Below are positions 1,375 through 53,349 of a stretch of DNA of 64,000 nt, piece after piece. The notes beneath the pieces are model-generated. The model saw only the letters and a list, made by a program, of their open reading frames with translations, was not told where the DNA came from and ran no database searches. Within the stretch, counting starts at the first letter, position 1, and each line of letters begins with the position of its first letter. The translations under genes were made by a program, and so were the position numbers. Source of the stretch: Octopus vulgaris. Lineage: Eukaryota. The stretch spans positions 6,634,001 to 6,698,000 of the forward strand of contig OX597842.1 in NCBI GenBank assembly GCA_951406725.2. Direction: 5' to 3'.

Positions 1375-2742
1375 TTACTTTTCTGTATGAATACATTTGT
1401 GTGTATTTAAGCTACTTTTATAAGAGAATGATTTACCACAGACATCACAATGATACGGCTTTTCACCTGTATGAATACGTTTGTGTGTAGTTAAGTCACC
1501 ATTTTGAGAGAATGATTTACCACAGATATCACAGTGATATGGCTTCTCTCCTGTATGAATACGTTTGTGTATAGTTAATGTATTCCCATGAGAGAATGAT
1601 TTACCACAGATGTCACAATGAAATGGCTTCTCTCCTGTATGAATACGTTTGTGCTCGGTTAAGTGCTGACTTAGAGAGAATGATTTACCACAGATATCAC
1701 ATTGATATGGTTTCTCTCCTGTGTGAATACGTACATGTTCGGTTAAACGCTGACGTAAAGAGAATGATTTACCACAGATATCACACTCATAAGGTTTCTC
1801 TCCTGTATGAATACGTTTGTGTTCAGTTAAGCGCTGACTTCGAGAGAATGAATAACCACAGATATCACAGTGATATGGCTTCTCACCTGTATGAATATAT
1901 TTGTGAGTTGTTAAGGCATGTTTCTGAGAGAATGAATTACCACAGATATCACAATGATACAGCTTTTCTTTTGTATGAATACGGTTGTGCTTAGTTAAGT
2001 CACTTTTTCTAGAGAATGATTTACCACAGATATCACAGTGATATGGTTTCTTACCTGTATGAATACATTTGTGCACAATTAAGCGCTCAGATTGAGAGAA
2101 TAATTTACCACAGATGTCACAGTGGTATGGCTTCTCACCTGTATGAATACGTTTGTGTTCAGTTAAGTGATATCTTGTAGACAATGATTTGCCACAGGTG
2201 TCACAATGATAAGACTTCTCACCTGTATGAATATGGTTGTGTTCAGTTAAGTGATTTCTTTGAGTGAAGGATTTACCACAGATATCACATTGATATGGTT
2301 TCTCTCCTGTATGAATACGTATGTGCTCGGTTAAGCGCTGACTTCGAGAGAATGATTTACCACAGATATCACAATGATAGGGTTTCTCACCCGTATGTGT
2401 ATATTTGTGAGTAGTTAAAACATGTCTTTGAGAGAATGATTTACCACAGATATCACAATGATAGGGCTTCTCGCCTGTATGAATACGGCTGTGTTTAGTT
2501 AAGTGACTTCTTTGCGGAAATGATTTACCACAGATATCACACTGAAATGGCTTCTCTCCTGTGTGAATACGTGTGTGTCTAACAAGATTACCTTTCTCAG
2601 CAAATACCTTCTTACAGGTATTACACTGGTATGATAATTTATCTGTTCCTTTCTTCCTATCATCATGAGAATCAATCTTTTTAGATTTTGTTTTAAATTC
2701 AACATTATTCCCACATGATTCATTTTCCATAATTAGGCTTCT
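1375..2742 (-). CDS. Poly-C2H2 (Kruppel-type) zinc-finger protein, 15 fingers, main coding exon
   Basis: 451-aa ORF (ATG at 2730) with 15 CxxC-x12-HxxxH units, mostly joined by TGEKP linkers. Splice acceptor catttctgtattgtgttcAG lies just upstream (exon start 2742, in frame). No KRAB, BTB or ZAD domain is visible. Confidence 0.95.
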
Positions 2743-3204
2743 CTGAACACAATACAGAAATGGTTATCTCTTTCTATTTTTAAAGTTGATTTCAAACAAA
2801 TATTTCTGTTTTCACTGTTGCATGGCATCAACTATGTTTTTGTTGCTCTCTGAAGATTCTACAGACACCATTGTAAGCCAAGTTTAATAAGAAGGCAAAA
2901 TCATTTTGTCATCATTCCAAACAGTGATATTGAGAAATGTTATTTATTTCAAATCTGTGTTATATATGTGCAGTGTATAACATCTTCCTTTAGTCTTTAA
3001 CAGAGGATAAATGCTAGATGTATCTGATGTAAAAACATTCTTTGATGCCAAGGTCACATGATAATCTAAAATGATGGACAAAAAAAGAACTTTGTAAGAC
3101 TTAAAGGATACACAAAAAGTAACAGAACAATCTCTAGCCATCATGTATTCACCCACTCATGCCTATCTTCCATCCAACTCATTTTATCATGGATTCCTCT
3201 CTCC

Positions 3205-3555: not shown

Positions 3556-4870
3556 TAATAAAGTGATTGTTTCTTATCAGGAACAAAATGTTTAATAGGA
3601 CTGCTATAGAAGTGCTCAATTAAATGAGACAAATATATTAAACTATGGTTGCAGAACAAACAAATGTAAGGTCATCCACCTAACATTTCATATCTTGAAC
3701 ATTTAATCACATAATGCTTTTTCTTTCACATAGAATATACATGAATGAAATCACGGAAGATGAAACATAATTCATTTATACAAGCATATAAGAGAAATGC
3801 GTGATTACAGTCTATCGCAATTAAATATTAATAATTAATACTTTAGCGAATAAAAAAATTTTTTTTAACATTATAACATCTAGAATAATAAATATATAAA
3901 AAAGTATAAAAATACATATATAGGAAACATATAAATATATAATATATAAGGTAAGATAAAAGTTCATCGTTTAGAAATTTTTTCGATTAAAAATTACTTT
4001 TTAAGATTAGGGGAAAACCTATTATGAAAAGCCACTGTCTAAGCAAAAAAGAAGGAACCATATTTACATTCCCTATGGCCATTTCAGGGGTTCATTACCG
4101 TATTTAATGCACAAGGGTGCATTATGATAATTACTCCTTCATTAGGGGAAAATAAAAACACATCACATACCAGGGTGAGACCTCCTTAACCAAACCCAAT
4201 GCAATATTGCATGGTTTCTTATTTAAGAAGCCATGTTCAGACCAGCCCAAATATTCAAAAATTATAAAATAAAAAAAAAACTATATAAATGGTTGTATTA
4301 AAGTAAATTCAACTTCGTCGGTTTCAATTCCCTGCAAGAACTAAATGATTTAATTACTACGACTTTTTATTCCTATACACAAATATATATCAACAATTGA
4401 CAGATCTCCTACAAAGTAGACTTAAGTTCTGAGGAAAGATAATCCATGATTACTGTTCTAGATTATGGCATTGCACAGCATCAAGTAAGCAGTAAATGGT
4501 AACTGTATTCTTCAGGAGGTTTTCTGATTCTCTGCACCAGCCCTAGCTTCATCCCCTACACTGCAACAAGTAGAAACTTTGCCAGCCCTTCTGCCCCGTG
4601 TGTCAGCAAGAATAAGAGTGACCCTGACTCTAACCCAAACTCTCCAGGCATGCCCTCCCTACCACCATCCAAGTAACGATGATAATATTGACAAGGCAGT
4701 AGATGCTGATGATGATATGCATTTTTCTAAAAGCAAATTCGGAAGTGGGGGATACATCTACAAATTTTCAAAAAACTAATTATGCTGCTTTACTCACATG
4801 GGACTAATTAATTTCACTGCTTTATTGTTAGCTGATGGTAGGTTTTTGAAATTAACAGTTTGGAAGTTAT

Positions 4871-5343
4871 CACGTAAAAAGCACCATCCGATCGTGGCCG
4901 TTGCCAGCCTTGCCTGGCCCCCTTACCGGTGGCACGTAAAAAGCACCATCCGATCGTGGCCGTTGCCAGCCTCGCCTGGCCCCCGTGCCGGTGGCACGTA
5001 AAAAGCACCATCCGATCGTGGCCGTTGCCAGCCTCGCCTGGCCCCCGTGCCGGTGGCACGTAAAAAGCACCATCTGATCGTGGCCGTTGCCAGCCTCGCC
5101 TGGCCCCCATGCCAGTTGCATGTAAAAAGCACCATCCGATTGTGGCTGTTTGCCAGCTCCGTCTGGCATGTAAAAAGCACCCACTACACTCACGGAGTGG
5201 TTGGAGTTAGGAAGGGCATCCAGCCATAGAAACACTGCCAGATCAAACTGGGCCTGGTGCAGCCTTCTGGCTTCACAGACCCCAGTTGAACCGTCCAACC
5301 CATGCTAGCATGGAAAACGGACGCTAAATGATGATGATGATGT
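4871..5343 (+). mobile_element. RTE-type 3' UTR/tail copy with 62-bp tandem modules and (GAT)n tail
   Basis: Units start at 4871, 4933, 4995, 5057 and 5119, then ggagttaggaagggcatccagc ... ccatgctagcatgg ... (gat)n. This is the same 3' end as the RT-bearing RTE copies at 8754 and 22783. Confidence 0.8.
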
Positions 5344-5427
5344 TACGTGCTTTCATCTCTATATAATGACTGTAACTTCGAAGGGTTCATTTAATTCTAT
5401 TATTTACATTGTTATTATTATTATTAA

Positions 5428-6135
5428 AGTGGCAAGCTGGCAGAATTGTTAGCATGCTGGGCAAAATGCTTAGCGGTGTTTCGTCTGTCTCTACATTCTG
5501 AGTACAAATTCCGCTGTGGTCGACTTTGCCTTTCATCCTTTTGGGGGTCGATAAATTAAGTACCAGTCAAGTACTGGGATCGATATGATTGATTGTCACC
5601 TTCCCCACAAAAATCCAAGGATTATTATTATTAGTAGTAGTAGTAGTAAAGCGGTGAGCTGGCAGAATCGTTAGCACGCCGGGCGAAATGCGTAGCCCTA
5701 TTTCTTCTGCCGTCATGTTCTGAGTTCAAATTCCGCCGAGGTCGACTTTACCTTTCATCATCATCATCATCATTTAGCGTCCGCTTTCCAGACTAGCATG
5801 GGTTGGACGGTTCAACTGGGGTCTGGGAAGCCAGAAGGCTGCATCAGACCCAGTCAGATCTGGCAGTGTTTCTACGGCTGGATGCCCTTCCTAACGCCAA
5901 CCACTCTGTGAGTGTAGTGGGTGCTTTTTACGTGCCACCCGCACAGGTGCCAGACGGAGCTGGCAAATGGCCACGAACAGATGGTGCTTTTACGTGCCAC
6001 CGGCACGGAAGCCAGTCGGGGTTGATAAATTAAGTACCAGTTACACACTGGGGTCGATGTAATCGACTTAATACCTATGTCTGTCTTTGTTTGTCCCTCT
6101 ATGTTTAGCCCTTTGTGGGTAATAAAGAAGTAGGT
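5428..6135 (+). mobile_element. Two tRNA-derived SINEs (ggcggcgagctggcagaa head family), the second interrupted by a minus-strand RTE tail
   Basis: Box A/B-like head (gagttcaaattcc) and gtcgataaattaagtaccag core; nested RTE tail at ~5757-6015. Confidence 0.75.
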
Positions 6136-6289
6136 ATTTCGTTCGCTGCTTCTTTCTGAGTTCAAATTCCGCTGAGATTGATTTTGCCTTAACTCCTTTT
6201 GGAGTCGATAAATTAAGTAGCAGTGAAATTCTGGGGTCGCTGTAATCGGCTCGTCCCCCTCCCCACAAAACTTCAGCCCTTATGCCTTT

Positions 6290-6505
6290 ATTACGCGCAA
6301 GTGGCTGAACAGTCCACACGTACCCTTAACGTAGTTCTTGAGGAGATTTAGCGTGACACAGAATGTGACAAGGTTGTTCCATGTAAAATACGGGAAGAAC
6401 TCATTTTTGTCAGCTGAACGGAGTGGAGGAATATGAAATAAAGTGACTTGCTCAAGGACAAAACGCGCCATCGGGAAATGAACCCACGACCTGACGACCA
6501 TGAGC
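6290..6505 (-). mobile_element. tRNA-derived SINE (third family)
   Basis: Head gtgggttcatttccc, central ttgagcaagtcactttatttc; 3' part homologous to 30265-30400. Confidence 0.6.
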
Positions 6506-6615
6506 TTAAATACAGGGTACTACTTAAGAAGAGTGGTCCCAGTGCGCGCACTCGCGTACTCACGCTAGCTAGTCGATCCTAGCAAAGTAAATAAAACACA
6601 AAATAAATAATTTTT

Positions 6616-7006
6616 GGCGATCTTTCGTCTCTAGTAGACCTTTCTGTCGATTTCCGTAAAAAATTTTTTTTTTTTACATATGGGCTTGCGGGAACTTTTG
6701 AAGTTACATACATATACACATACACCGAGTAAAAAATTTCAGTTATCTCTGTCTCTTCACACACACTAACAGAAGCACTTCACTTACACAACATACTGTC
6801 TGTCTCCCACACCCCATCAAACACACACATGTACATCAATGCTTCACATGCACGGTAACTTCAAAAGAACTTCCCTCGTCATACAATCGCTTTCTCTTAG
6901 TCTCTTTCGCTCTCATTACTTCAAGTTTCCGCAAGCCCAGATGTAAAAAAAAATAAATTTTTTTACGTAAATCGACGGAAAGGTCTACTAGAGACGAAAG
7001 ATTGCC
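6616..7006. mobile_element. MITE with GGCGA...T(C/T)GCC TIRs and 8-bp TSD (Merlin- or Mutator-like)
   Basis: Inverted ends of about 75 bp; TSD taattttt at 6608-6615 and 7007-7014; core shared with 13244-13739. Confidence 0.75.
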
Positions 7007-7027
7007 TAATTTTTTTACACAAAGTAT

Positions 7028-7421
7028 AGGCGCAGGAGTGGCTGTGTGGTAAGTAGCCTGCTTACCAACAACATGGTTCCAGGTTCAGTCCCACTGCATG
7101 GCACCTTGGGCAAGTGTCTTCTACTATAGCCTTGGGCCGACCAAAGCCTTGTGAGAGGATTTGGTAGATGGAAATTGAAAGAAGCCCGTTGTATATATGT
7201 GTGTATGTATTTGTGTGTGTGTTTGTCCCCCCAGCATCGCTTGACAACTGATGCTGGTATGTTTACGTCTCCGTCACTTAGCGGTTTGGCAAAAGAGACC
7301 GATAGAATAAGTACTAGGCTTACAAAGAATAAGTACTGGGGTCGATTTGCTCGACTAAAAGCGGTGCTCCAGCATGGCCGCAGCCAAATGACTGAAACAA
7401 GTAAAAAAGAAAGTAAATAAG
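7028..7421 (+). mobile_element. tRNA-derived SINE (ggcgcaggagtggctgtgtggtaag head family), full length
   Basis: Pol III box A/B-like head, internal (TG)n, 3' tail gcggtgctccagcatggccgcag..actgaaacaag. Further copies at ~11300-11686(-), 14345-14741(-), 14842-15225(+), 15290-15643(-), 26110-26500(+), 28575-28935(+), 37680-38280(-), 48828-49235(-), 49593-49992(+), 50380-50816(-), 51130-51478(-), 51955-52295(+), 54535-54850(-). Confidence 0.85.
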
Positions 7422-7570
7422 ACACAAAAACATCCTTGCTTTGTGTAAAAAAATTATTTGTTTTGTTTTATTTACTTTGCTAGGTAGTCGTTGTAGGATC
7501 GACTAGTCACGACTAGCTAGCGCGGATGAGCGAGTGCACGCACCGGGACCACTCTTCTTAAGTAGTACCT

Positions 7571-7800
7571 ATTTATTTATTACCCACAAGGGGCTAAACA
7601 CAGAGGTGACAAACAAGGACAGACATAGGTATTAAGTCGATTACATCGACCCCAGTGCGTAACTGGTACTTAATTTATCGACCCTGAAAGGATGAAAGGC
7701 AAAGTCGACCTCGACGGAACTTGAACTCAGAACGTAACGACAGACGAAATACCGCTAAGCATTTCGCCCGACGCGCTAACGTCTCTGCCAGCTCGCCGCC
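7571..7800 (-). mobile_element. tRNA-derived SINE (ggcggcgagctggcaga family), full length
   Basis: Same family as 5650 and 38290-38506; flanked by a 15-bp TSD. Confidence 0.8.
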
Positions 7801-7988
7801 TTCTTAAGTAGGACCCACAGAGCACCTGTTCGGACAACGTCTATTTAAGGGAGACAGTGAGGTAAGGTACAACACATGCATTGGACAAATCATTTGTGCT
7901 GGTCATTCAGCAACGGCTGAACACCCACAGGTCGTCTTCGACGGGGGAGTGAATTATTCAGCATTAAAGTAAATCTTTGTCAACTTAC

Positions 7989-8200
7989 CGTTTTCATTTA
8001 ATACAGAGTAAGGGGCCATCCCACAACACATTCGCCCCATTGGCGCACGGCATTCTGGGACACCGGTGTTTAGACATGTTGTGCCTCGTCGGCTAGAAGT
8101 GCCGGAACTTTGAGACTAGCTAAAAGTATCTACATTTGTCGACCGAGTCAGTTTTGATTCGATTGTAATTGAGGTTGCTAATAAAATATCTCGAGAATTT
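7989..8200 (-). promoter_or_regulatory. Candidate first exon and CpG-containing promoter of the ZF gene
   Basis: Non-repetitive, CpG-richer segment ending ATG AAA ACG|GTAAGT (donor GT at 7988-7987), which joins in phase 0 to the 2742 acceptor ([13 protein letters not shown]). A CCGGAA ETS-like motif (8102) and a TCTCGAGA palindrome (~8189) lie upstream. Confidence 0.45.
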
Positions 8201-8684
8201 TCGTATAAAAAATCAATATATTTTCGCTGTTTGAGTCCAAGTCAAATTTTCTTCACACCAAACTTTTTCAAATTTCGACGTCTTGACAACTGATGGGGCA
8301 AAATGAGTAATAATTTCAATAAAGTTCACTCTAATTTGTTCCTAGTGGCTGAGTGGTTATTAGTCCACTTCTGGACGACATAGTGTTGGGTTCGGCCTCA
8401 CATCATGACACTAGATTTGGAAGGCTGAAACCGGTAGAAATCCATAGCTTCTATATGTATATGTGTGTGTGTGTGTGTGTCCATGTTCCCCCCACTGCTT
8501 AATAACCAATATTGTTTTGTTTACATCCCCAGAGCCTCATAATTCAGTAAAAGAACTGATAGAATAAGTACCAGATTAGAGGCCCAGACATGGCTGTGTG
8601 GTTAAGAACTTTGTTTCATACCCACGTTTTCAGGTTCAGTCCCACTGTATGGCACTTTGGGTAAGCGACTTCTTCCATAGCCTG

Positions 8685-10526
<1,842 letters not shown>

Positions 10527-22785: not shown

Positions 22786-25700
22786 AACCTGTGGAAGAGA
22801 CAGACCCAGGAAAACCTGGGACGAGGTGGTGAAGCACAACCTTCGAACTTTAGGTCCCACTGAGGAAATGACTAGAGACCGAGTCCTCTGGAAGTGCGCT
22901 GTGCGCGAGAAGACCCGGCAGGACAAGTGAGTCCATAACCCGTGGCCTTCTACATGGGATGGAGCCAGCCTACGTATGCATACCTTCCCTTCTTGGGACA
23001 CAAAACTCTACTTGTGAAGACCTGTTGAGGCAAGTGAGGATCAGAATCGAATCGATCAATGGAAATTGCAGATGTGTTACCAGTGCTGGTGGCATGTCGA
23101 AACTCTACTTGTGAAGACCTGTTGAGGCAAGTGAAGATCAGAATGGAAATCGATCAATGGAAATTGCAGATGTGTTACCAGTGCTGGTGGCATGTCGAAA
23201 CTCTACTTGTGAAGACCTGTTGAGGCAAGTGAGGATCAGAATGGAAATCGATCAATGGAAATTGCAGATGTGTTACCAGTGCTGGTGGCATGTCGAAACT
23301 CTACTTGTGAAGACCTGTTGAGGCAAGTGAGGATCAGAATGGAAATCGATCAATGGAAATTGCAGATGTGTTACCAGTGCTGGTGGCATGTCGAAACTCT
23401 ACTTGTGAAGACCCGTTGAGGCAAGTGAGGATCAGAATGGAAATCGATCAATGGAAATTGCAGATGTGTTACCAGTGCTGGTGGCATGTCGAAACTCTAC
23501 TTGTGAAGACCCGTTGAGGCAAGTGAGGATCAGAATGGAAATCGATCAATGGAAATTGCAGATGTGTTACCAGTGCTGGTGGCATGTCGAAACTCTACTT
23601 GTGAAGACCCGTTGAGGCAAGTGAGGATCAGAATGGAAATCGATCAATGGAAATTGCAGATGTGTTACCAGTGCTGGTGGCATGTCGAAACTCTACTTGT
23701 GAAGACCTGTTGAGGCAAGTGAGGATCAGAATCGAATCGATCAATGGAAATTGCAGATGTGTTACCAGTGCTGGTGGCATGTCGAAACTCTACTTGTGAA
23801 GACCTGTTGAGGCAAGTGAGGATCAGAATCGAATCGATCAATGGAAATTGCAGATGTGTTACCAGTGCTGGTGGCATGTCGAAACTCTACTTGTGAAGAC
23901 CTGTTGAGGCAAGTGAGGATCAGAATGGAAATCGATCAATGGAAATTGCAGATGTGTTACCAGTGCTGGTGGCATGTCGAAACTCTACTTGTGAAGACCT
24001 GTTGAGGCAAGTGAGGATCAGAATGGAAATCGATCAATGGAAATTGCAGATGTGTTACCAGTGCTGGTGGCATGTCGAAACTCTACTTGTGAAGACCTGT
24101 TGAGGCAAGTGAGGATCAGAATGGAAATCGATCAATGGAAATTGCAGATGTGTTACCAGTGCTGGTGGCATGTCGAAACTCTACTTGTGAAGACCCGTTG
24201 AGGCAAGTGAGGATCAGAATGGAAATCGATCAATGGAAATTGCAGATGTGTTACCAGTGCTGGTGGCATGTCGAAACTCTACTTGTGAAGACCCGTTGAG
24301 GCAAGTGAGGATCAGAATGGAAATCGATCAATGGAAATTGCAGATGTGTTACCAGTGCTGGTGGCATGTCGAAACTCTACTTGTGAAGACCCGTTGAGGC
24401 AAGTGAGGATCAGAATGGAAATCGATCAATGGAAATTGCAGATGTGTTACCAGTGCTGGTGGCATGTCGAAACTCTACTTGTGAAGACCTGTTGAGGCAA
24501 GTGAGGATCAGAATCGAATCGATCAATGGAAATTGCAGATGTGTTACCAGTGCTGGTGGCATGTCGAAACTCTACTTGTGAAGACCTGTTGAGGCAAGTG
24601 AGGATCAGAATCGAATCGATCAATGGAAATTGCAGATGTGTTACCAGTGCTGGTGGCATGTCGAAACTCTACTTGTGAAGACCTGTTGAGGCAAGTGAGG
24701 ATCAGAATGGAAATCGATCAATGGAAATTGCAGATGTGTTACCAGTGCTGGTGGCATGTCGAAACTCTACTTGTGAAGACCTGTTGAGGCAAGTGAGGAT
24801 CAGAATGGAAATCGATCAATGGAAATTGCAGATGTGTTACCAGTGCTGGTGGCATGTCGAAACTCTACTTGTGAAGACCTGTTGAGGCAAGTGAGGATCA
24901 GAATGGAAATCGATCAATGGAAATTGCAGATGTGTTACCAGTGCTGGTGGCATGTCGAAACTCTACTTGTGAAGACCTGTTGAGGCAAGTGAGGATCAGA
25001 ATGGAAATCGATCAATGGAAATTGCAGATGTGTTACCAGTGCTGGTGGCATGTCGAAACTCTACTTGTGAAGACCCGTTGAGGCAAGTGAGGATCAGAAT
25101 GGAAATCGATCAATGGAAATTGCAGATGTGTTACCAGTGCTGGTGGCATGTCGAAACTCTACTTGTGAAGACCTGTTGAGGCAAGTGAGGATCAGAATGG
25201 AAATCGATCAATGGAAATTGCAGATGTGTTACCAGTGCTGGTGGCATGTCGAAACTCTACTTGTGAAGACCCGTTGAGGCAAGTGAGGATCAGAATGGAA
25301 ATCGATCAATGGAAATTGCAGATGTGTTACCAGTGCTGGTGGCATGTCGAAACTCTACTTGTGAAGACCTGTTGAGGCAAGTGAGGATCAGAATGGAAAT
25401 CGATCAATGGAAATTGCAGATGTGTTACCAGTGCTGGTGGCATGTCGAAACTCTACTTGTGAAGACCTGTTGAGGCAAGTGAGGATCAGAATGGAAATCG
25501 ATCAATGGAAATTGCAGATGTGTTACCAGTGCTGGCGGCATGTCGAAACTCTACTTGTGAAGACCCGTTGAGGCAAGTGAGGATCAGAATGGAAATCGAT
25601 CAATGGAAATTGCAGATGTGTTACCAGTGCCGGTGGCATGTCGAAACTCTACTTGTGAAGACCTGTTGAGGCAAGTGAGGATCAGAATGGAAATCGATCA

Positions 25701-26099
25701 ATGGAAATTGCAGATGTGTTACCAGTGCCGGTGGCATATAAGAGAACCTTCCATTTCACGACCGTTGTCAGCACCGCCCCGTTTCGTGTCCGTTGCCAGC
25801 ACCGCCCCGTTTCGTGTCCGTTGCCAGCCTCGCCTGGCTCTCGTGCCGGTGGCACATAAAAAGCACCATCCATTCGTGGCCGTTTGCCAGCTCTCTCTGG
25901 CACCTGTGCAGGTGGCACGTAAAAAGCACCCATTACACTCACGGAGTGGTTGGCGTTAGAAAGGGCATCCAGCCGTAGAAACACTGCCAGATTTGACTGG
26001 GCCTGATGAAGCCTTCTGGCTTCACAGACCCCAGTAGAACCATCCAACCCATGCTAGCATGGAAAACGGATGCTAAACGACGATGATGATGATGATGAT
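22783..26099 (+). mobile_element. 5'-truncated RTE LINE (ORF C-terminus, expanded 3' UTR, (GAT)n tail)
   Basis: GTCGRDRPRKTWDEVVKHNLRTLGPTEEMTRDRVLWKCAVREKTRQDK* matches the 9164-9526 RTE C-terminus; the canonical 3' end follows the satellite. Confidence 0.88.
23003..25737 (+). repeat. Tandem satellite, 28 x 97/98-bp monomers, with 782-bp (8-mer) higher-order repeat
   Basis: Monomer aaactctacttgtgaagacctgttgaggcaagtgaggatcagaatggaaatcgatcaatggaaattgcagatgtgttaccagtgctggtggcatgtcg; the variant pattern restarts at 23003, 23785 and 24567. Confidence 0.95.
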
Positions 26100-29584: not shown

Positions 29585-29982
29585 GATTGGCTTCTGTGCC
29601 GCTGGCACGTAAAAAGCACCATTCAAGCGTGATCGTTACCAGCGTCACCTTACTGGCACTTGTGCCGGTGGCATGTGGAAAACATTTGAGCTAGGTCATT
29701 GCCAGTGCCACTGGACTGGCTCCTGTGCAGGTGGCATATAAAACACACCACTTGAGTGTGGCCATTGCCAGTACTGCCTGACTGGCCCTCGTGCCGGTGG
29801 CACATAAAAGCACCCACTACACTCACGGAGTAGTTGGCGTTAGGAAGGGCATCCAGCTGTAGAAACTCTGCCAAATCAAGATTGGAGCCTGGTGCAGCCT
29901 TCTGACTTGCCAGACCCCAGTCAAATCGTCCAACCCATGCCAGCATGGAAAGCAGACGTTAAACGATGATGATGATGATGAT
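29585..29982 (+). mobile_element. RTE-tail element with four diverged GTGCnGGTGGCAC modules
   Basis: Same 3' end as 4871. Other copies at 30835-31125(+), 34027-34440(-), 35560-35835(+), 37915-38115(-), 49290-49480(-), 52600-53170(-). Confidence 0.8.
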
Positions 29983-30028: not shown

Positions 30029-31123
30029 TGTGTATACACACACACACATATATATTGTGTTGTGACCCCCTTCAGTCATGAATGACCATGGGATTGCACC
30101 TAGAAAGTTACCCTCTGAGGCACAAGTCTGGGCAAGGTTGTTTATGGAAGACCAGCAGTCGCCCATGCATACCGACCTCCCCTCTCCATGCCACCAATTT
30201 TATCCAAGGGAAAGGCAAAGGGTCGATACAGCTTGGCACCTGTGACGTCGCAGTTCATTTATTAACGTGCAAGTGGCTGAGCATTCCACAGACACGTGTA
30301 CCCTTAACGTAGTTCTCGGGGGAGATTCAGCGTAACACAGAGTGTGACAAGGCTGGCCCCTTTGAAATACAGGTACAACAGAAACAGGAAGTAAGAGTGA
30401 GAGAAAGTTGTGGTGAAAGAGTACAGACTGTATAGTAATGGGACTGGGTGTGCTGTGTGGGCTGAGGGCAAAAGAGGGATAAGCATATTGTGCTATCATC
30501 TAACATGATTTCTTGGGAGTATATAACCGTAATCTTAGCTTTCTGCAATCATTCTCTCTCTGTTTTACTCTTTTACTTGTTTCAGTCATTTGACTGCAGC
30601 CATGCTGGAGCACTGCCTTTAGTCGAGCAAATCAACCCCAGGACTTATTCTTTGGAAGCCTAGTACTTATTGTATTGGACTCTTTTTGCCGAACCGCTAA
30701 TTTACGGGGACGTAAACACACCAGCATCGGTTGTCAAGCGATGTTGGGGAGGGGGGACAAACACAGACAGACAGACAGACACACACACACACACATATAT
30801 ATGTATATATAAATAAATATATACACATATATATGTGGATCATAGGGTGACCTGCTGTGCTTGAGGAGACCTATTGAGTCAAGTACATCAACATCAAAAT
30901 AAATATCAAATGGAAATTGTAGTTGTGATACCTGTGCTGGTGGCACGTAAAAAGCACCCACTACACTCACAGAGTGGTTGGCGTTAGGAAGGGCATCAAG
31001 CTGTAGAAACACTGCCAGATCAGACTGGAGCCTGGTGCAGCCTCCTGGCTTCCCAGACCCTGGTCAAACTGTCCAACCTGTGCTAGCACGGAAAACGGAC
31101 GTTAAATGATGATGATGATGATG

Positions 31124-33329: not shown

Positions 33330-34760
33330 GATTGACCATTTTAGCCCATATTCTGTTTTTTCCTCCCTAGGTTGCCATATTCGCTTGTATTTTCTCTGTT
33401 TTATGCCTATATGACGAAAAATGTGGTTTTTATTGTAAATGATGAGATATGGTTGTAAACCTATCAGTAATGTACCTATAAGGACTACTGAAAACTGCTG
33501 TAAACCAAATTTGCCCCAATAAAGAACAAAATATGTAATGACAATTATGTCTCACTTGCACACCGGCACAAGTGCCAGTAAGGCGACACTGGTAACGATC
33601 ACGCTTGAATGGTGCTTTTTTGCTAGTTCCAATGAGTGGGTTATTGAATTGTTTCATTTTACTATTATTAATGTTGTGCATATGTTGCTATAAATTAGAA
33701 AAGTTAGCACACGATACCTTCATGGTGTATCTATTAAAAATAGCATGGTATCGATTTGATTTGGGGAAACATTTGTCTAAACTAGCAGTCTTCATTGAAA
33801 CCCGTGAACCATAGACTGGGTTGTACCAGAGGACATCGTGATTCCTATATTTGATGTTTGGTTTATTTATTCTGGTGTGTTGTACAGGGTTGGGACAATT
33901 TATTGCTATGAACAATAGAATTATTGTGTTGTGTTTGGTTTGTAAGTTTATTGCCTTGACCAATTCTTCCCATCCTGTATTCTCAATCTGAGTCACTTTG
34001 CTTACTGTAATATTGCGTTGGTGTGCAATCATCATCATCATCATCGTTTAATGTCCGTTTTCCGTGCTAGCATAGGTTGGACGGTTCGACCGGGGTCTGG
34101 GAAGCCAGGAGGCTGCACCAGGCTCCAGTCTGATTTGGCAGTGTTTTGACAGCTGGATGCCCTTCCCAATGCCAACCACTCCGTGAGTGTAGTGGGTGCT
34201 TTTTACGTGCCAGGGGAGTCTGGCATCGGCCACATTCGGATGGTGCTTTTTATGTGCCACCGGCACAGAAGCCAGTCAAGGCGGCGCTGGCATCGGCTAC
34301 GTTCGGATGGTGCTTTTTACCTGCCACCGGCACAGAAGCCAGTCAAGGCAGTACTGGCATCGGCCACATTCAGATGGTGCTTTTTACGTGCCACCGGCAC
34401 AGGTATCACAACTACTATTTCCATTGATATTTATTTCGATGTTCATGTATGTATTATTATTGAAGGAATTGGCAGAGTTATGTATATTTGTGCCTTGTTT
34501 GTATTAGATTTTAACTCAGTGTCCAGCTCTCATTAAAGCAGGATTGTAATATGGTGCATGTGGTTCAAAAATTTCCTTATTAGAAGACAACCTAGACATT
34601 CTTATTGAAATGTTCTTAACTAATCCCGTATGGGTCGATGGTTGGATGCTACATTTATATACTTAATATTAACGTTTGGTTTATGAAAGGATTCAAATAA
34701 TCCAGTGTCAAGACAGAATGTAACAAATACACAATGAACACTGTGAAAGTGAATGTGCTT
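33330..34760 (-). mobile_element. Degenerate Penelope-like element (RT thumb to linker), interrupted by an RTE tail at 34027-34440
   Basis: HKPNVNIKYINVASNH, VLWYNP and LDKCFPKSNRYHAIFNRYTMKVS motifs typical of PLE ORFs. Confidence 0.7.
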
Positions 34761-40383: not shown

Positions 40384-40494
40384 GGCGGCGAGCTGGCAGA
40401 AACGTTAGCACACCAGGCGAAATGCAATAGCGCGCGTTTCGTCCACCTTGACGTTCTGAGTTCAAATTCCGCCGAAAGGATGACCTTGCTTTCA
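40384..40494 (+). mobile_element. 5' head only of a tRNA-derived SINE, abutting the LINE
   Basis: ggcggcgagctggcagaaacgttagcac...gagttcaaattccgccga; the remainder of the SINE is not found after the LINE. Confidence 0.8.
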
Positions 40495-40504
40495 GCGCAC
40501 ACGG

Positions 40505-43500
40505 GTGTGTATGTTCTACCTGAGAGGTTCCTGCTGGCATGGAAAGGAAGGTGCAGGCTGCCGCTTTGCACATCAGGGACCCTGCCACAGAGACACGAGG
40601 CAGATGGACAAACCATCAACACAAAGAAAAGGGATGGACCACGCACCACCTGCCCCAAAGCGGAGGTATGCAGATGTTGTGCGCGCCACAAACAGCCAAC
40701 ATGATGTTGTCGAAAGAGCAGCTGCTGAGCAACAATCTTTTTTGTGCATGGCACAAAAGATTGTACAGCAGCTGACCTGGCTTCATCAAACCCAAGCCCG
40801 CAGGTGGGACTACCCACTATATACCAGACCACCACAGCAAACAGACACAGGATGGACACCGCCGGCAACAACGTACACCTCAATACTCCTACTGAACATC
40901 AGAGGACTGCAAACACTCAGTAACAGGACAAAGATCCCGTTCCTGAGAGACTTTGTTGCATGCAATCAAGCCTTATGCATAGCACTTACAGAAACGCACC
41001 TGAAACCGGACATAGCAGATGCGGAGTTACACATACCACAGTATGCTGTACTACGGACCGACAGGAAAGAAAGGAGTCATGGAGGTGTTGCTATGTACAT
41101 CCGTGAGGACCTCACACCCCAGGTCCTCTTGTCATACTCAAACTCGGTGTGTGACACACTAATTGTACATATTAGGCAACTTGATGTAGTTGTGTGTGCT
41201 ACATATCGCCCTCCAGATGCCCCAAGCCATGTGGGCAAGTTTGAAGACTGCCTTATAAAAATAGAAGAAATTCTAACCACATTAGAACAACACATAGGTG
41301 TGCTTCTTATGGGAGACTTCAATCTGCCCAATGTCAGATGGCCCGAGGGCCTTTCTCTCCCAGGAATGACAAGATGTGAACGAGGACAGGCGAGGTCCCT
41401 CCGGAACCTCATCAACACCCTGTACATGGAGCAGGTAATACTCCAACCAACCAGGGCAGGTAACACACTGGATCTCTGCTTCACAAATGACATGGATCTC
41501 ATCCATAATGTGAAAGTGACACCGACACTACTCTCGGATCACAACATGATAGAGCTGACCATGTACGGGCCAAAAGAGAGCACGGACATGCAGCCTACAA
41601 GAAACCCTCAAAATCTTTCCAGCTTGAACTACCATAAGGCAAACTGGAAACAAATTGAGAAAGAGATCCTCAAACAAAACTGGCCTAAATGTCTCTCCTC
41701 GCCAGACATCGACGTGAAACTTCAACAATTCATGTCTGTAATGCAAGCCATATGCTACAAATGTGTCCCAGAGAGAAAGGCCACTGTACACAAGAACAAA
41801 ATCCCCAGAGAGAGGAAAATTTTAATGAGACGGCGTACGAAATTTTCAAATCGCCTAAACAAACAGATTGAAAGCAGTGAAAAGTCCCGCCTAAAAATAA
41901 AACTGTTGGAAATCGAAAAATGTCTGCAACTCTCCCATGAAAAAGAAAGAGCAGACAAAGAAGCCTGGGCTATAGAAAACATAAAATCTAACCCCAGAGC
42001 TTTCTACAGGTATGCCAAAGAAACAGCTACGGTGCACTGTAGGATAGGGCCACTCCTCGAAAAGGATGGCACACTTACAGGAAAACCAATGAGGGTAAGT
42101 GAAATACTGAATGAGCAATTCAATAGTGTTTTCACTCCACCCCTTGGGCATCTCCAAATCACCAATCCAACTGACTTTTTTACCACTGCAGATATAAAAT
42201 CAGAGGCGGCGACGATAGATTACATCGATATAAAGGAAGACGATGTAACCAAGGCTATAGATGAAATGAAAACAGACTCAGCTACTGGCCCCGATGGATT
42301 CCCGGCAATCCTCCTAAAAGCATGTAAGAGAGTCCTAGCAAGACCACTGCAGTTCCTCTTTCAGAGCTTCCTTGCAGCTGGCAAACTTCCAGGAAAACTG
42401 AAGGAAGGTAAAATATGCCCCATTCATAAAGGAGGTAGCAGAGCGGAAGCCAAGAACTATAGACCTATCTCTCTGACCTCACACATCAGCAAGGTCATGG
42501 AACGAATAGTCAGAAGGAAGCTGATCACCTTCCTTGAAGAGAATGACTTGCTGCCCGACACCCAACATGGTTTCCGACCAGGGAGAAGCTGTTTAACTCA
42601 GCTCCTACAACACTATGACTGGGTGCTGAAACGGCTGCTCAACCACTCAAATGTGGAAGTGATATATCTCGACTTTGCAAAGGCCTTTGATAAAGTCGAT
42701 CATGGAATGATATGTCACAAACTGCGTGATCTCAACATAGTTGGAAAACTGGGAGAATGGCTTCATGACTTTCTGAAGGATAGAAGTCAGGTGGTAGTAG
42801 CCAATGGGGCCACCTCCATTAACACACAAATAGTGAGCGGTGTTCCGCAGGGCACTGTTCTGGGACCACTACTGTTCATAATGGCCCTCTCAGACATGCC
42901 CTCAGCCACGCAGAGAGCCACGATCACAAGTTATGCAGATGATACAAAAGTTTCACAGGCAATACAGAACCCTGAGGACACTAAACACCTGCAATGTGAG
43001 CTGGACGAAATATACAAGTGGGCTGAAAAGAATAGCATGCAGTTCAATGCTGGAAAGTTTCAAGCTTTATACTATCAGCATGCAAAACTGAATGCAATAC
43101 CCAATGAATACACTGGACCCGGAGGGATTGCAATCCCAGAGGCACAATCAGTGCGTGACCTGGGTATTCACATGAGTGATGACGCGACCTTTCATGTACA
43201 TGTTGCTAAACTGACAATGAAATGTAGACGGCTGGCTGGATGGATTCTTAGAACCTTTAGAACAAGAGAACAAGAAACCATGATGGTCCTCTGGAAGACA
43301 CTTGTCCTAAGCCACTTTGACTATTGCTCTCAGCTATGGTCACCATCCAGTGTCAAGTTGATCACAGAACTTGAGGCGATCCAACGAAGCTACACAAAGA
43401 AGATAGCCTCTATGCAGAATGTAAGCTACTGGGAAAGACTCAAGAGATTAAATTTATATTCCCTGGAGCGTAGGCGGGAAAGATATGCCATAATATACAT

Positions 43501-43843
43501 CTGGAAGATCCTGGAGGGAAGTGTCCTGAACTTTGGCATCGAGAGTTACGCAAATGCCAGAACTGGGCGCCACTGCGTGGTGCCTAGGACTCCAAACCTG
43601 CCATCAAGATGTAGGACAAGATTCTGTGATAGCCTGGGCTTCCGAGGCCCACAGCTCTTCAATATCCTCCCGAAGAACCTGAGAGACCTGCATGGGGTGG
43701 ATACAGATGTCTTTAAAATGAAGCTGGATCTCTTCCTGTCAGGTGTCCCAGATGAACCAACTTCACGGCAGGAGGGGCAGATGAGGGCAGCTGCATCGAA
43801 CTCTCTCATGCACCAAATAGCAGTTGCTAGAAAGCCTCCATGA
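40505..43843 (+). CDS. CR1/L2-group non-LTR retrotransposon polyprotein: CCCH finger + APE endonuclease + reverse transcriptase
   Basis: Uninterrupted 1112-codon frame: NIRGL, ALTETHL, GDFN, LDLCF, SDH (APE); GPDG, NYRPISLTS, QHGFR, DFAKAFDKV, GVPQGTVLGP, YADD (RT); LERRR C-terminal motif. Short 3' UTR and (AATC)n tail to 43940. Confidence 0.95.
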   Translation: MCMFYLRGSCWHGKEGAGCRFAHQGPCHRDTRQMDKPSTQRKGMDHAPPAPKRRYADVVRATNSQHDVVERAAAEQQSFLCMAQKIVQQLTWLHQTQARRWDYPLYTRPPQQTDTGWTPPATTYTSILLLNIRGLQTLSNRTKIPFLRDFVACNQALCIALTETHLKPDIADAELHIPQYAVLRTDRKERSHGGVAMYIREDLTPQVLLSYSNSVCDTLIVHIRQLDVVVCATYRPPDAPSHVGKFEDCLIKIEEILTTLEQHIGVLLMGDFNLPNVRWPEGLSLPGMTRCERGQARSLRNLINTLYMEQVILQPTRAGNTLDLCFTNDMDLIHNVKVTPTLLSDHNMIELTMYGPKESTDMQPTRNPQNLSSLNYHKANWKQIEKEILKQNWPKCLSSPDIDVKLQQFMSVMQAICYKCVPERKATVHKNKIPRERKILMRRRTKFSNRLNKQIESSEKSRLKIKLLEIEKCLQLSHEKERADKEAWAIENIKSNPRAFYRYAKETATVHCRIGPLLEKDGTLTGKPMRVSEILNEQFNSVFTPPLGHLQITNPTDFFTTADIKSEAATIDYIDIKEDDVTKAIDEMKTDSATGPDGFPAILLKACKRVLARPLQFLFQSFLAAGKLPGKLKEGKICPIHKGGSRAEAKNYRPISLTSHISKVMERIVRRKLITFLEENDLLPDTQHGFRPGRSCLTQLLQHYDWVLKRLLNHSNVEVIYLDFAKAFDKVDHGMICHKLRDLNIVGKLGEWLHDFLKDRSQVVVANGATSINTQIVSGVPQGTVLGPLLFIMALSDMPSATQRATITSYADDTKVSQAIQNPEDTKHLQCELDEIYKWAEKNSMQFNAGKFQALYYQHAKLNAIPNEYTGPGGIAIPEAQSVRDLGIHMSDDATFHVHVAKLTMKCRRLAGWILRTFRTREQETMMVLWKTLVLSHFDYCSQLWSPSSVKLITELEAIQRSYTKKIASMQNVSYWERLKRLNLYSLERRRERYAIIYIWKILEGSVLNFGIESYANARTGRHCVVPRTPNLPSRCRTRFCDSLGFRGPQLFNILPKNLRDLHGVDTDVFKMKLDLFLSGVPDEPTSRQEGQMRAAASNSLMHQIAVARKPP

Positions 43844-43940
43844 AGTGAAACCGAGTAGCAACACCAAATGGCGGTGCCCCAGCATGGCCACAGCTCATAA
43901 GCTGAAACAAGAATCAATCAATCAATCAATCAATCAATCA

Positions 43941-45590
43941 GCTACTGGCCCCGATGGATTCCCGGCAATCCTCCTAAAAGCATGTAAGAGAGTCCTAGCA
44001 AGACCACTACAGTTCCTCTTTCAGAGCTTCCTTGCAGCTGGCAAACTTCCAAGAAAACTGAAGGAAGGTAAAATATGCCCCATTCATAAAGGAGGTAGCA
44101 GAGCGGAAGCCAAGAACTATAGACCTATCTCTCTGACCTCACACATCAGCAAGGTCATGGAACGAATAGTCAGAAGGAAGCTGATCACCTTCCTTGAAGA
44201 GAATGACTTGCTGCCCGACACCCAACATGGTTTCCGACCAGGGAGAAGCTGTTTAACTCAGCTCCTACAACACTATGACTGGGTGCTGAAACAGCTGCTC
44301 AACCATTCAAATGTGGAAGTGATATATCTCGACTTTGCAAAGGCCTTTGATAAAGTCGATCATGGAATGATATGTCACAAACTGCGTGATCTCAACATAG
44401 TTGGAAAACTGGGAGAATGGCTTCATGACTTTCTGAAGGATAGAAGTCAGGTGGTAGTAGCCAATGGGGCCACCTCCATTAACACACAAATAGTGAGCGG
44501 TGTTCCGCAGGGCACTGTTCTGGGACCACTACTGTTCATAATGGCCCTCTCAGACATGCCCTCAGCCACGCAGAGAGCCACGATCACAAGTTATGCAGAT
44601 GATACAAAAGTTTCACAGGCAATACAGAACCCTGAGGACACTAAACACCTGCAATGTGAGCTGGACGAAATATACAAGTGGGCTGAAAAGAATAGCATGC
44701 AGTTCAATGCTGGAAAGTTTCAAGCTTTATACTATCAGCATGCAAAACTGAATGCAATACCCAATGAATACACTGGACCCGGAGGGATTGCAATCCCAGA
44801 GGCACAATCAGTGCGTGACCTGGGTATTCACATGAGTGATGACACGACCTTTCATGTACATGTTGCTAAACTGACAATGAAATGTAGACGGCTGGCTGGA
44901 TGGATTCTTAGAACCTTTAGAACAAGAGAACAAGAAACCATGATGGTCCTCTGGAAGACACTTGTCCTAAGCCACTTTGACTATTGCTCTCAGCTATGGT
45001 CACCATCCAGTGTCAAGTTGATCACAGAACTTGAGGCAATCCAACGAAGCTACACAAAGAAGATAGCCTCTATGCAGAATGTAAGCTACTGGGAAAGACT
45101 CAAGAGATTAAATTTATATTCCCTGGAGCGTAGGCGGGAAAGATATGCCATAATATACATCTGGAAGATCCTGGAGGGAAGTGTCCTGAACTTTGGCATC
45201 GAGAGTTACGCAAATGCCAGAACTGGGCGCCACTGCGTGGTGCCTAGGACTCCAAACCTGCCATCAAGATGTAGGACGAGATTCTGTGATAGCCTGGGCT
45301 TCCGAGGCCCACAGCTCTTCAATATCCTCCCGAAGAACCTGAGAGACCTGCATGGGGTGGATACAGATGTCTTTAAAATGAAGCTGGATCTCTTCCTGTC
45401 AGGTGTCCCAGATGAACCAACTTCACGGCAGGAGGGGCAGATGAGGGCAGCTGCATCGAACTCTCTCATGCACCAAATAGCAGTTGCTAGAAAGCCTCCA
45501 TGAAGTGAAACCAAGTAGCAACACCAAATGGCGGTGCCCCAGCATGGCCACAGCTCATAAGCTGAAACTAGAATCAATCAATCAATCAAT

Positions 45591-51576: not shown

Positions 51577-53349
51577 CGACGGGCTTCTTTCTGTTTCTGT
51601 CCACCAAATCCATTTACAAGACTTTGGTCAACCCAGGGTATAGTAGAAGACACTTGCCCAAGATGCCACACAGTAGGACTGAACCCAGAACCACGTGGTT
51701 TGGAAGCAGATTTCTTACCACACAGCCACACCTGTTCCCATATGTTCAATTTAGCAACAGAAGACCCATGTGTGCTTGTGTCTACAGTAAATTTATCATT
51801 TTCTGTGTGCCTGAAATATGTGTGTTGTATGTTCTCCCGGAATACCTGAGTTCTTTGTTTTCCCAGAATGCTCAACTATGTATACAAAGAAAACTGAGCC
51901 ATGCTGATATCTTAAGAACTCATAACGATAGGTACAGGCGTGGTTGTGTCATAAGAGGTTTACTTCCCAACCACATGGTCCTGAGTTCATTCCCAATGCA
52001 ATGCGCCTTGGGCAAGTGTCTTCTACTATAGCCTCATGCCAACCAAAGCCTTGTGAGTGGATTTGGTAGATGGAAACCGAAAGAAACCTGTCGTATATGT
52101 GTGTGTGTGTGTGTTTGTTCCCTCCACTACCATTTGACAATTGATGTTGGTGTATTTACATCCCTGTAACTTTGTGGTTTGGCAAAAGAGACCTGTAGAA
52201 TAAGTACTAGGCTTAAGAAATAATTCCTGAGGTTGATTTGAATGCAGTGCTGCAGCATGGCCGCTGTCAAGCAACTGGAGCAAGTAAAAGAATAAAAGAA
52301 AAAACTATATTCTGTGTTTCTACTGTAACACACATGTTTATTCTGTATCTACTGAAATCTTGACAATATTTGAGTTCCCTGGAAATTTGAAGGGTTCCTA
52401 GAATACTTGGATGTGTTTTATTTGTTCACAAAATACAGAACTGTTCTTGCGTCACCCAAAAGTTCAAAATCTTAAGTGTATTTTGTGTTTTCACAGAAAG
52501 CTTTGGATATTTTTTCTAAGTATTTTCTCAGAAAGCTGAAGTTTGTTTCTGTTTGTTGTGTTTCATTTTTTACCCCTCAGTATCAACATCCTTATCATGA
52601 TGATGATCATCATCATTTAGGGTCTGTTTTCCATGCCAGTATGGATTGGACGTTTTTGCCAGAGCTAGTAAGGCCAGGTCACAATAAGGCCCCATTATCT
52701 CTTCTGCCATGATTTCTAGGGCTGGATTCTCTTCCTAATGCCAACCACTCTACGGAGTGTACTGGATGCTTTTTACGTGGCACCATCACCAATGCTTTTA
52801 CATGGCAACAGTACCAGTGATTTTTCTGTCACTACCACTAGTGCTTTTAACACATCATCAGCACCAATGTTCTCTAAGTGGCACCATCACTTGTGCTTTT
52901 CATCTGGCATCATCATCTATGCATTTTGTGGAACCATCACCAATGCATCTTAAGTGGCATCATTACCAGTGCTTTTATATAGCACCATCACCAATGCTTT
53001 TTACAAGACACCACCACCTGTGCTTTTTATGTGGCCCCATCACCCATGCTTTTTACGTGGCACCATCACCAGTGCTTTTTTATTTGGTATCAGCACCAAC
53101 ACCAATGCTTTTTACAAGACACCATCACCAGTACTTTTTATGTGGTGCCATCAGCTGAGCTCTTTATATGGAATCAGCATTGGCATCAATTCTGCTGTGT
53201 TGGATGAGTCTTCTTTGGTGCAGTTGGGTGCCAGCCAGATATCTTGATCATTTAACATACTCGTACACACACACATATACATATATATATATATAAATTG
53301 GAAGGTTTGGAGATGATGTACAGGTATTTTATATTTTATATTTCTTCTA

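Follow-up and report, generated by a model that had tools for sequence, protein, structure and literature searches.

A tandem structured unit with a candidate H-type pseudoknot in the 3' UTR of an abundant RTE-type LINE

Introduction

To our knowledge, how the proteins of RTE-type LINEs choose their own RNA has been little studied. In R2 elements, a small 3' UTR pseudoknot is necessary for template use, and it is used in RNA-templated gene insertion. The question arises again at a locus of Octopus vulgaris, where 64,000 nucleotides of contig OX597842.1 (the window; coordinates count from its first base) contain tandem copies of a short motif in the tail of a LINE. The original prediction read these copies as H-type pseudoknots and suggested that an array of variable length might serve RNA stability, translation or recruitment of the reverse transcriptase (RT). 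Here, we ask what the repeated unit is, whether its core is likely to form a knot, and whether the array matters as such.

Results

The module lies in the 3' UTR of an abundant LINE

At the first locus (plus strand), the insertion begins with a 5'-truncated module that retains the stem-1 3' strand, the A-rich loop and CACC (4871..4885). It is followed by a module with a broken stem-1 5' strand (4923..4947; 2 mismatches to the pattern), two intact modules (4984..5009 and 5046..5071), a decayed module (5109..5133), and the terminal module, which lacks its 5' half owing to a 19-nt microhomology deletion (5166..5181). TRF described 4871-5157 as 4.6 copies of a 62-nt unit. The tandem array predicted for 4871-5185 is thus present, but only the two modules named are intact among its six units. 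Behind the terminal module follow a hairpin with a conserved stem and a variable loop (P3, 5187..5199), the conserved distal 3' UTR with a motif common to metagenome repeats (5196..5321), a predicted terminal stem-loop lying mostly inside this distal part (5292-5323), and the (GAT)n tail (5330..5342).

Further copies in the window carry two modules (5920..6006, minus; 8912..8998, minus, with 270 nt from the ORF end to the distal tail), two intact modules (25843..25930, plus), four modules with stem 2 altered in some (29596..29814, plus), a single module (30934..30958, plus), or three modules and a terminal module bearing the 19-nt deletion (34195..34400, minus). At window 5757-5780 and elsewhere, LINE tails often lie inside or beside SINE-like repeats or (TA)n tracts; the copy at 5780-6006 is inserted into a repeat of this kind.

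Eight exact matches to the module pattern were found in the window (4985, 5047, 25843, 25906 and 30934; minus strand 5920, 34242 and 34376). Allowing ≤3 mismatches raised this number to 14, compared with 0 in shuffled sequence. Across the 2.8-Gb genome, the exact pattern occurs 29,950 times, and the reversed-pattern control gave 0 matches. A further sample of 1.0 Mb consisted mostly of repeat-rich or window-adjacent DNA and included 200 kb of arbitrary stretches from other contigs. In the resulting 1.06-Mb sample, 110 of 112 exact modules had a same-strand distal tail ≤700 nt downstream; these modules lie behind the stop codon and upstream of the (GAT)n tail, which bears out their original assignment to a LINE 3' UTR. 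The distal-tail anchor alone detected 370 tails in 1.064 Mb, and extrapolation from the 17 tails in the arbitrary 200 kb gives roughly 2x10^5 LINE copies in total. The repeat was abundant in the contig data from each of four organisms (A, B, C and D).

The suggested Rfam comparison returned no family that matches the module: covariance models run on 4700-9300 gave three chance matches far below threshold and none at the gathering score, and a search of eight long loci gave 0 matches. When 1.06 Mb was scanned with a descriptor for the same topology in other sequences, every recurrent match belonged to the module family itself, and no module homologues were found in viral contigs. We found no description of the module repeat in the openly searchable literature, and the available sections of a paper on RTE UTR pieces in SINEs (PMC5786205) mention no such module.

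The copy at 8770-10221 (minus) joins the modules to the frameshifted 3' part of a LINE ORF (9164..10221, minus), an RT fragment bearing an inserted PHD-like finger. Two long relatives have frames of 1045 and 1037 aa, each with Exo_endo_phos and RVT_1 domains and a sub-cutoff PHD match. A single ORF with an AP endonuclease (APE) followed by RT fits the RTE clade, as does the short-repeat tail that replaces poly(A) (of the GAT type in 260 among 273 full tails); on this architecture, and in line with the original prediction, we provisionally assign the host LINE to that clade. Its 3' UTR is ordered as stop codon, ~120-200 nt, module array, P3 hairpin, distal motif, terminal stem-loop and tail. 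The modules are 130-190 nt away from the tail, with the core ending ~140 nt short of it. In the only copy inspected for its 5' UTR (L398), a repeat has been inserted where the ORF begins, and an intact 5' UTR was not recovered. Elsewhere in the window, a 1119-aa LINE-like ORF has immediately behind it a near-identical second copy of its RT half, 560 aa long (40484-45503, plus), and a long C2H2 zinc-finger array exon with a 462-aa frame and an 84-nt period occupies 1375-2763 (minus).

The distal motif (5196-5235) is common to abundant metagenome-contig repeats (L161-L291), where it lies near the 5' start of the repeat. The sequences on either side of it are able to pair, and the pairs vary from G-U to A-U. 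Metagenome contigs gave at least 140 distal-motif matches in at least 131 loci, with 0 modules among the matches listed; their source is probably an invertebrate host. As judged from these sequences, the distal motif looks more deeply conserved than the module.

The unit comprises a hairpin and a 26-nt core

The internal unit, mostly 61-68 nt long, has three parts: the 26-nt core, a spacer that varies, and the P0 hairpin. The stretches originally described as linkers contain this conserved hairpin, one per unit (4965..4980, plus, at the first locus), which the first reading missed. Across young and old types, the core would have a stem 1 (S1) of 4-5 bp, a loop 1 (L1) of 1-2 nt, a stem 2 (S2) of 4-5 bp and a loop 3 (L3) of 6-8 nt; in the intact module at 4984..5009, the predicted values are 5 bp, 1 nt, 4 bp and 7 nt. 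The core has the two interleaved complementary strand pairs of an H-type pseudoknot, its loops being taken as able to span the stems.

Because inserted copies decay neutrally, selection can be judged only from what differs between source lineages. In the internal set (270 units from 142 loci, with CpG-decay alleles set aside), the non-consensus frequency was 0.067 in S1, 0.034 in the S2 5' strand, 0.124 in the S2 3' strand, 0.107 in L3, 0.155 in the spacer, 0.053 in the P0 stem, 0.39 in the P0 loop and 0.31 at the junction. The P0 stem was conserved as strongly as S1, with a hypervariable loop, and both helices are well supported. The 5-nt loop of the S1 hairpin, unlike the P0 loop, was conserved (0.034 versus 0.39), which counts for a knot. 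The core A-run and the preceding U were 95-98% conserved, on par with the stems. Among 110 young terminal modules, the frequencies were 0.054 in the S2 5' strand, 0.027 in the S2 3' strand and 0.41 in L1, with a 3' linker median of 0.027. The expected excess conservation of GGTG and CACC over the linkers was therefore found for GGUG (0.034 versus 0.155-0.39, p = 0.01) but was not significant for internal CACC (0.124, p = 0.15); CACC of terminal modules is well conserved (0.027), but only about as much as the adjoining 3' linker.

The loop-1 bases had been listed correctly (C at 4989, A at 25910, G in the 5920-5944 copy, T at 30938). Their variability had been taken as evidence for a pseudoknot, an argument that falls because a 5-nt hairpin loop fits equally well. 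The T sits in a CpG, where CpG decay accounts for it. A source-element change is required for A and G alone, and these two bases are found mostly in terminal modules (together in 54 of 182 terminal versus 19 of 342 internal modules). Right up to the CACC edge, variation affects loop 1, the loop-3 length and the last base of loop 3. Mutual information over the 270 internal units ranked subfamily linkage at the top and no stem pair high. In sum, the tandem unit is genuine and structured, and it occurs in very large numbers in the LINE 3' UTR.

Stem 1 shows pair-keeping changes

Thirty-one of 321 haplotypes were recurrent, each in ≥4 contexts and partly ascertained by pattern. Among them, the outer pair of S1 occurred in five forms (U-A, C-G, U-G, A-U and G-U). 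Overall covariation in these 31 haplotypes was not significant, as it was matched by 30 of 500 shuffles. In the old family, a 3' U at the outer pair was accompanied by a 5' A or G in 24 of 26 loci, compared with 21 of 33 otherwise (p = 0.013). Where adjacent modules differed at the outer pair, the bases matched within the module 50 times but across modules only 20 times, which indicates that the local S1 is what is kept.

The inner pair of S1 was doubly changed in 558 cores genome-wide, whereas 42,000 wild-type cores and a single rate of 2.3%, itself derived from small counts, would lead one to expect ~23. The first 100 of these doubles, tallied by hand, comprised 60 new Watson-Crick pairs (48 U-A, 11 A-U, 1 G-C), 33 cores with a junction C, two with U-U and five unpaired. 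The junction C or U in 35 of the 100 can pair with the G before CACC, and the junction base is paired on either side in 95. Two properties of the inner pair count against a knot, namely the lack of a within-module preference (6 versus 5) and a common C-A mismatch (18 versus 8 U-A). On balance, the covariation expected of stem 1 in an H-type pseudoknot appears to be present, more clearly at the outer than at the inner pair.

Stem 2 persists in terminal modules and shifts at the junction

S2 is intact in the recurrent terminal-module types but broken in some internal modules. All six recurrent terminal types (clustering 123 of 234 terminal units) have four Watson-Crick S2 pairs and 4-5 S1 pairs. 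Of the 13 internal types (147 of 380 units clustered), eight have four Watson-Crick S2 pairs, three a reduced or shifted S2, one a broken S2, and one has lost it. In one young lineage, the penultimate module is changed on both S2 sides, with the register not restored.

Covariation at the central S2 pairs, one of the checks proposed with the original prediction, did not emerge. Double changes at these three pairs numbered 47, 14 and 67 genome-wide, compared with ~23 by chance, an expectation that rises further once older copies are allowed for; the doubles are thus at chance level, and no compensated lineage or subfamily was found. No double change in S2 occurred in the 31 recurrent haplotypes. 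The central pairs are invariant between subfamilies, and only the stem ends shift. There was a small excess of C-G doubles (5 of the 47 at one central pair, p = 0.007), a double transversion that restores the pair; the three of these five that were inspected (L294, L300, L302) have different subfamily contexts.

The older, more diverged subfamilies have C at the junction (1,488 exact), giving an S2 of 5 bp, an S1 of 3-4 bp and a variable L1 of 2 nt, whereas in young subfamilies the junction G extends S1 in place of S2. In the old subfamilies, the junction base would thus pair within stem 2 in place of stem 1, which is the behavior expected of a pseudoknot. At the outer S2 pair of the old family, G-C was counted 1,488 times, G with non-C 1,443 times (mostly G-U), non-G with C 429 times and both changed 887 times; the first 100 of these doubles were 60 U-U, 27 A-U, 3 U-A and 10 other. 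The many U-U doubles count against a knot; by these counts, the old family can do without the outer pair and still retain an S2 of 4 bp. One old sub-lineage has a 7-bp complement with A-U at the outer S2 position. With G at the junction, the G before CACC was freer, which is the right direction but not significant (44/225 versus 0/12, p = 0.13; 63/422 versus 3/26, p = 0.78). Both GUG and both CAC triplets were kept in every recurrent terminal type examined. These triplets outlast the shift of the junction register, and only a knot pairs all four, which provides an indirect argument for the knot.

The rival downstream pairing partners of CACC count against a knot, and RNAfold preferred an inter-module duplex on arrays. 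Compared with the nested minimum free energy, the knot was 1-11 kcal/mol worse without coaxial stacking and between 2 better and 7 worse with it, by a rough energy built from ViennaRNA stacks and a Dirks-Pierce-type penalty. From the sequence evidence taken together, a pseudoknot is probable but unproven, and we lean slightly towards its formation in the terminal module. The core is also a near-palindrome that may resemble transcription-factor sites; the G-U-keeping changes fit the RNA reading better than such a DNA-level reading.

Module number varies, probably as a by-product of copying

The copy number is variable among sister copies, as had been predicted, with ~2 to 7 modules in nearly all of the 27 young ORF-linked copies examined (four of which are near-identical duplicates). 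Seven of 146 copies, on several backgrounds, have lost the 5' part of the terminal core, half of it, through an identical 19-nt deletion between two short direct repeats; gaps of 12-30 nt in the 127-nt distal tail were present in only 5 of 163 young copies. The 19-nt deletions point to template slips during copying. Long single-locus arrays have private decay mutations in common, which points to late expansion.

In the copy with the intact modules at 25843..25930, a 98-nt unit with a stem-1 hairpin but no CACC partner is repeated 28 times at ~99% identity (23003..25737, plus), and it occurs at least 12 times at another locus (U2, near 5.255 Mb). Expansion, therefore, does not need the knot. 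This 98-nt expansion is a LINE-born minisatellite. Knot-less 28-nt units and decayed 26-nt units have likewise been amplified, and the window holds a decayed array of ~15 x 26 nt of the old-family module, consisting of the core alone with C at the helix junction (52766..53153, minus). A function for the array as such is left unsupported, as units without a stem-2 partner were amplified just as readily. Younger copies did not have significantly more modules (rho 0.33, p = 0.15, n = 21). There was also no sign of RT stalling at the knot: the 5' breakpoints of the truncated copies (141 of 200) were spread over the unit with no pile-up, remnants below ~7 nt being invisible. Copy-number variation is best read as a by-product of copying, and any function probably does not reside in the array as such. 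In an old subfamily (L407-L433), the whole cassette of core, P3 hairpin and distal motif is doubled, and its cores have diverged to different stem-2 ends.

Discussion

The observed basis for any account of the module is its position behind the stop codon, the conservation of helix letters between subfamilies, the pair-keeping changes in S1 and the variable module number. In our preferred reading, a 3' UTR piece of an abundant RTE-type LINE, made of the P0 hairpin and the 26-nt core, would have been tandemly duplicated. The core would fold as a compact H-type pseudoknot with stems 1 and 2 present simultaneously, and the RT protein of the element would bind the core and the following hairpin as a cis-signal, much as the A-clade R2 protein binds its own RNA. 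Of the possible roles, recognition by this protein is the most likely. The terminal module is probably the constrained one; the upstream modules would be redundant copies under weaker constraint, produced by template slips at short direct repeats and supplemented by later DNA-level expansion. We give this reading as a whole, in which the core folds as a likely pseudoknot and, with the hairpin behind it, acts as a cis-signal for the element's own RT protein, about an even chance.

A possible, though somewhat unlikely, alternative is a chain of simple hairpins (P0, S1 and P3) with a single-stranded A-rich hinge. Here, GGUG, the A-run and CACC would be read by the protein, or CACC would start the next stem; an old long S2 hairpin would have been refolded into the S1 hairpin, leaving the CACC complement as a remnant. 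Such a chain would explain why the A-run and its preceding U are as conserved as the stems and why central S2 covariation is absent. It also agrees with the downstream pairing of CACC in nested folding, with the 9-10-bp hairpin that the old family can form around S2 without S1, and with the A-rich hinge between two stems that R2 proteins read, according to the available portions of PMC12180492 and PMC12222951. However, the upstream GUG and the loop CAC are invariant in old subfamilies whose alternative downstream partner varies, and the junction base is paired on either side in 95 of the first 100 doubles; both favor the pseudoknot.

It is quite unlikely that the modules are functionless, that is, a self-complementary, repeat-prone stretch that was duplicated and appears conserved through few source lineages and recent common descent. 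The amplification of knot-less 98-nt, 28-nt and decayed 26-nt units, the private decay mutations common to arrays, the 19-nt deletion that precisely halves the terminal module (7 of 146 copies), and the metagenome repeats with the distal motif but 0 modules among 140 matches listed would all suit it. Yet source-element changes avoid stems and fill loops (P0 stem 0.053 versus loop 0.39; S1 0.067), S1 shows pair-keeping changes, and the seven deletions, being on different subfamily backgrounds, look like products of copying and not like successful templates. Very unlikely, in our judgment, is a model in which tandem knots stand in for poly(A), acting additively on translation or on the stability of the RNA, with module number tuning activity. 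Tandem 3' UTR pseudoknots of tobamoviruses do functionally replace poly(A), the element ends in (GAT)n and not poly(A), both stems are retained by the majority of internal types (four Watson-Crick S2 pairs in 8 of 13), and young ORF-linked copies mostly have 3-5 modules, with four of six low-scoring (older) complete UTRs being single-module. Against it stand the non-significant relation of module number to youth and the loss of internal S2 in active lineages; the tobamovirus analogy is weak, as nothing tested supports poly(A) replacement, and a literature search on it gave nothing relevant. A bolder extension of our preferred reading is unlikely: that an RTE-clade LINE independently evolved an R2-like pseudoknot-hinge-stem, tuned by a one-base-pair slide of the junction and multiplied into an expandable array, with longer arrays improving recognition of the template or survival of the RNA. 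If true, such an R2-like expandable array would help explain the rise to ~10^5 copies.

A 26-nt candidate knot with ~30,000 exact copies and natural variants is cheap to probe and mutate, and the module could show whether APE-type LINEs share the solution of R2. The natural shift of one base pair between stems is a neat case of RNA structure evolution. Should the knot fail on probing, the module would be part of an ordinary repeat-prone LINE 3' UTR.

The comparisons with known systems that follow are based on the available portions of the papers cited. The -1 frameshift knots of PLRV and BWYV are part of coding RNA, downstream of a slippery heptamer; their loop 1 is 2 nt long, and an unpaired linker base separates the stems (PMC5416846). 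The module resembles these luteovirus/polerovirus knots in its ~26 nt, short loop 1 and A-rich loop crossing stem 1. However, the young module is non-coding and lies ~120-200 nt behind the ORF end, and its core has a 1-nt L1 and no linker base, so that the luteovirus analogy drawn originally is weak; going by these portions, neither the reading frame with heptamer nor the 2-nt L1 with unpaired base of such frameshift signals is found in the young module. Stringent LINEs have 3'-terminal stem-loops (PMC5135761), as is predicted here just ahead of the (GAT)n tail, whereas the modules are additional, upstream and repeated. The UTR repeats of L1 are 5' promoter monomers or low-complexity 3' repeats (PMC5381506); like the monomers, the modules are tandem units of variable copy number in a LINE UTR, but they are structured 3' units of 62-67 nt. 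RTE-2_OV of Octopus vulgaris is likewise an RTE-clade single-ORF LINE, with a mostly microsatellite 3' UTR and a C2H2 finger (PMC9115989); our element, with its module and PHD-like finger, is set apart from it by description, no module being mentioned for RTE-2_OV in the portion available.

The closest parallel is the A-clade R2 of birds and turtles, whose protein binds a 3' UTR pseudoknot-hinge-stem (PMC12180492, PMC12222951). The R2 knot is single, forms the last 65-67 nt, and was proven by cryo-EM and compensatory rescue (PMC12180492, PMC12222951). Both elements would combine a small non-LTR 3' UTR pseudoknot, here predicted, with a short hinge and a stem, represented in our case by the terminal core, ~5 nt and P3. 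In contrast to R2, the module is tandem, lies 130-190 nt from the tail and belongs to an APE-type element, and the likeness is one of description and not of sequence. As far as these portions define the class, the module, being neither 3'-terminal nor from an R2-type element but APE-type, is not a member of the A-clade R2 3' UTR pseudoknots; by analogy, the A-clade R2 knot is nevertheless its best functional model.
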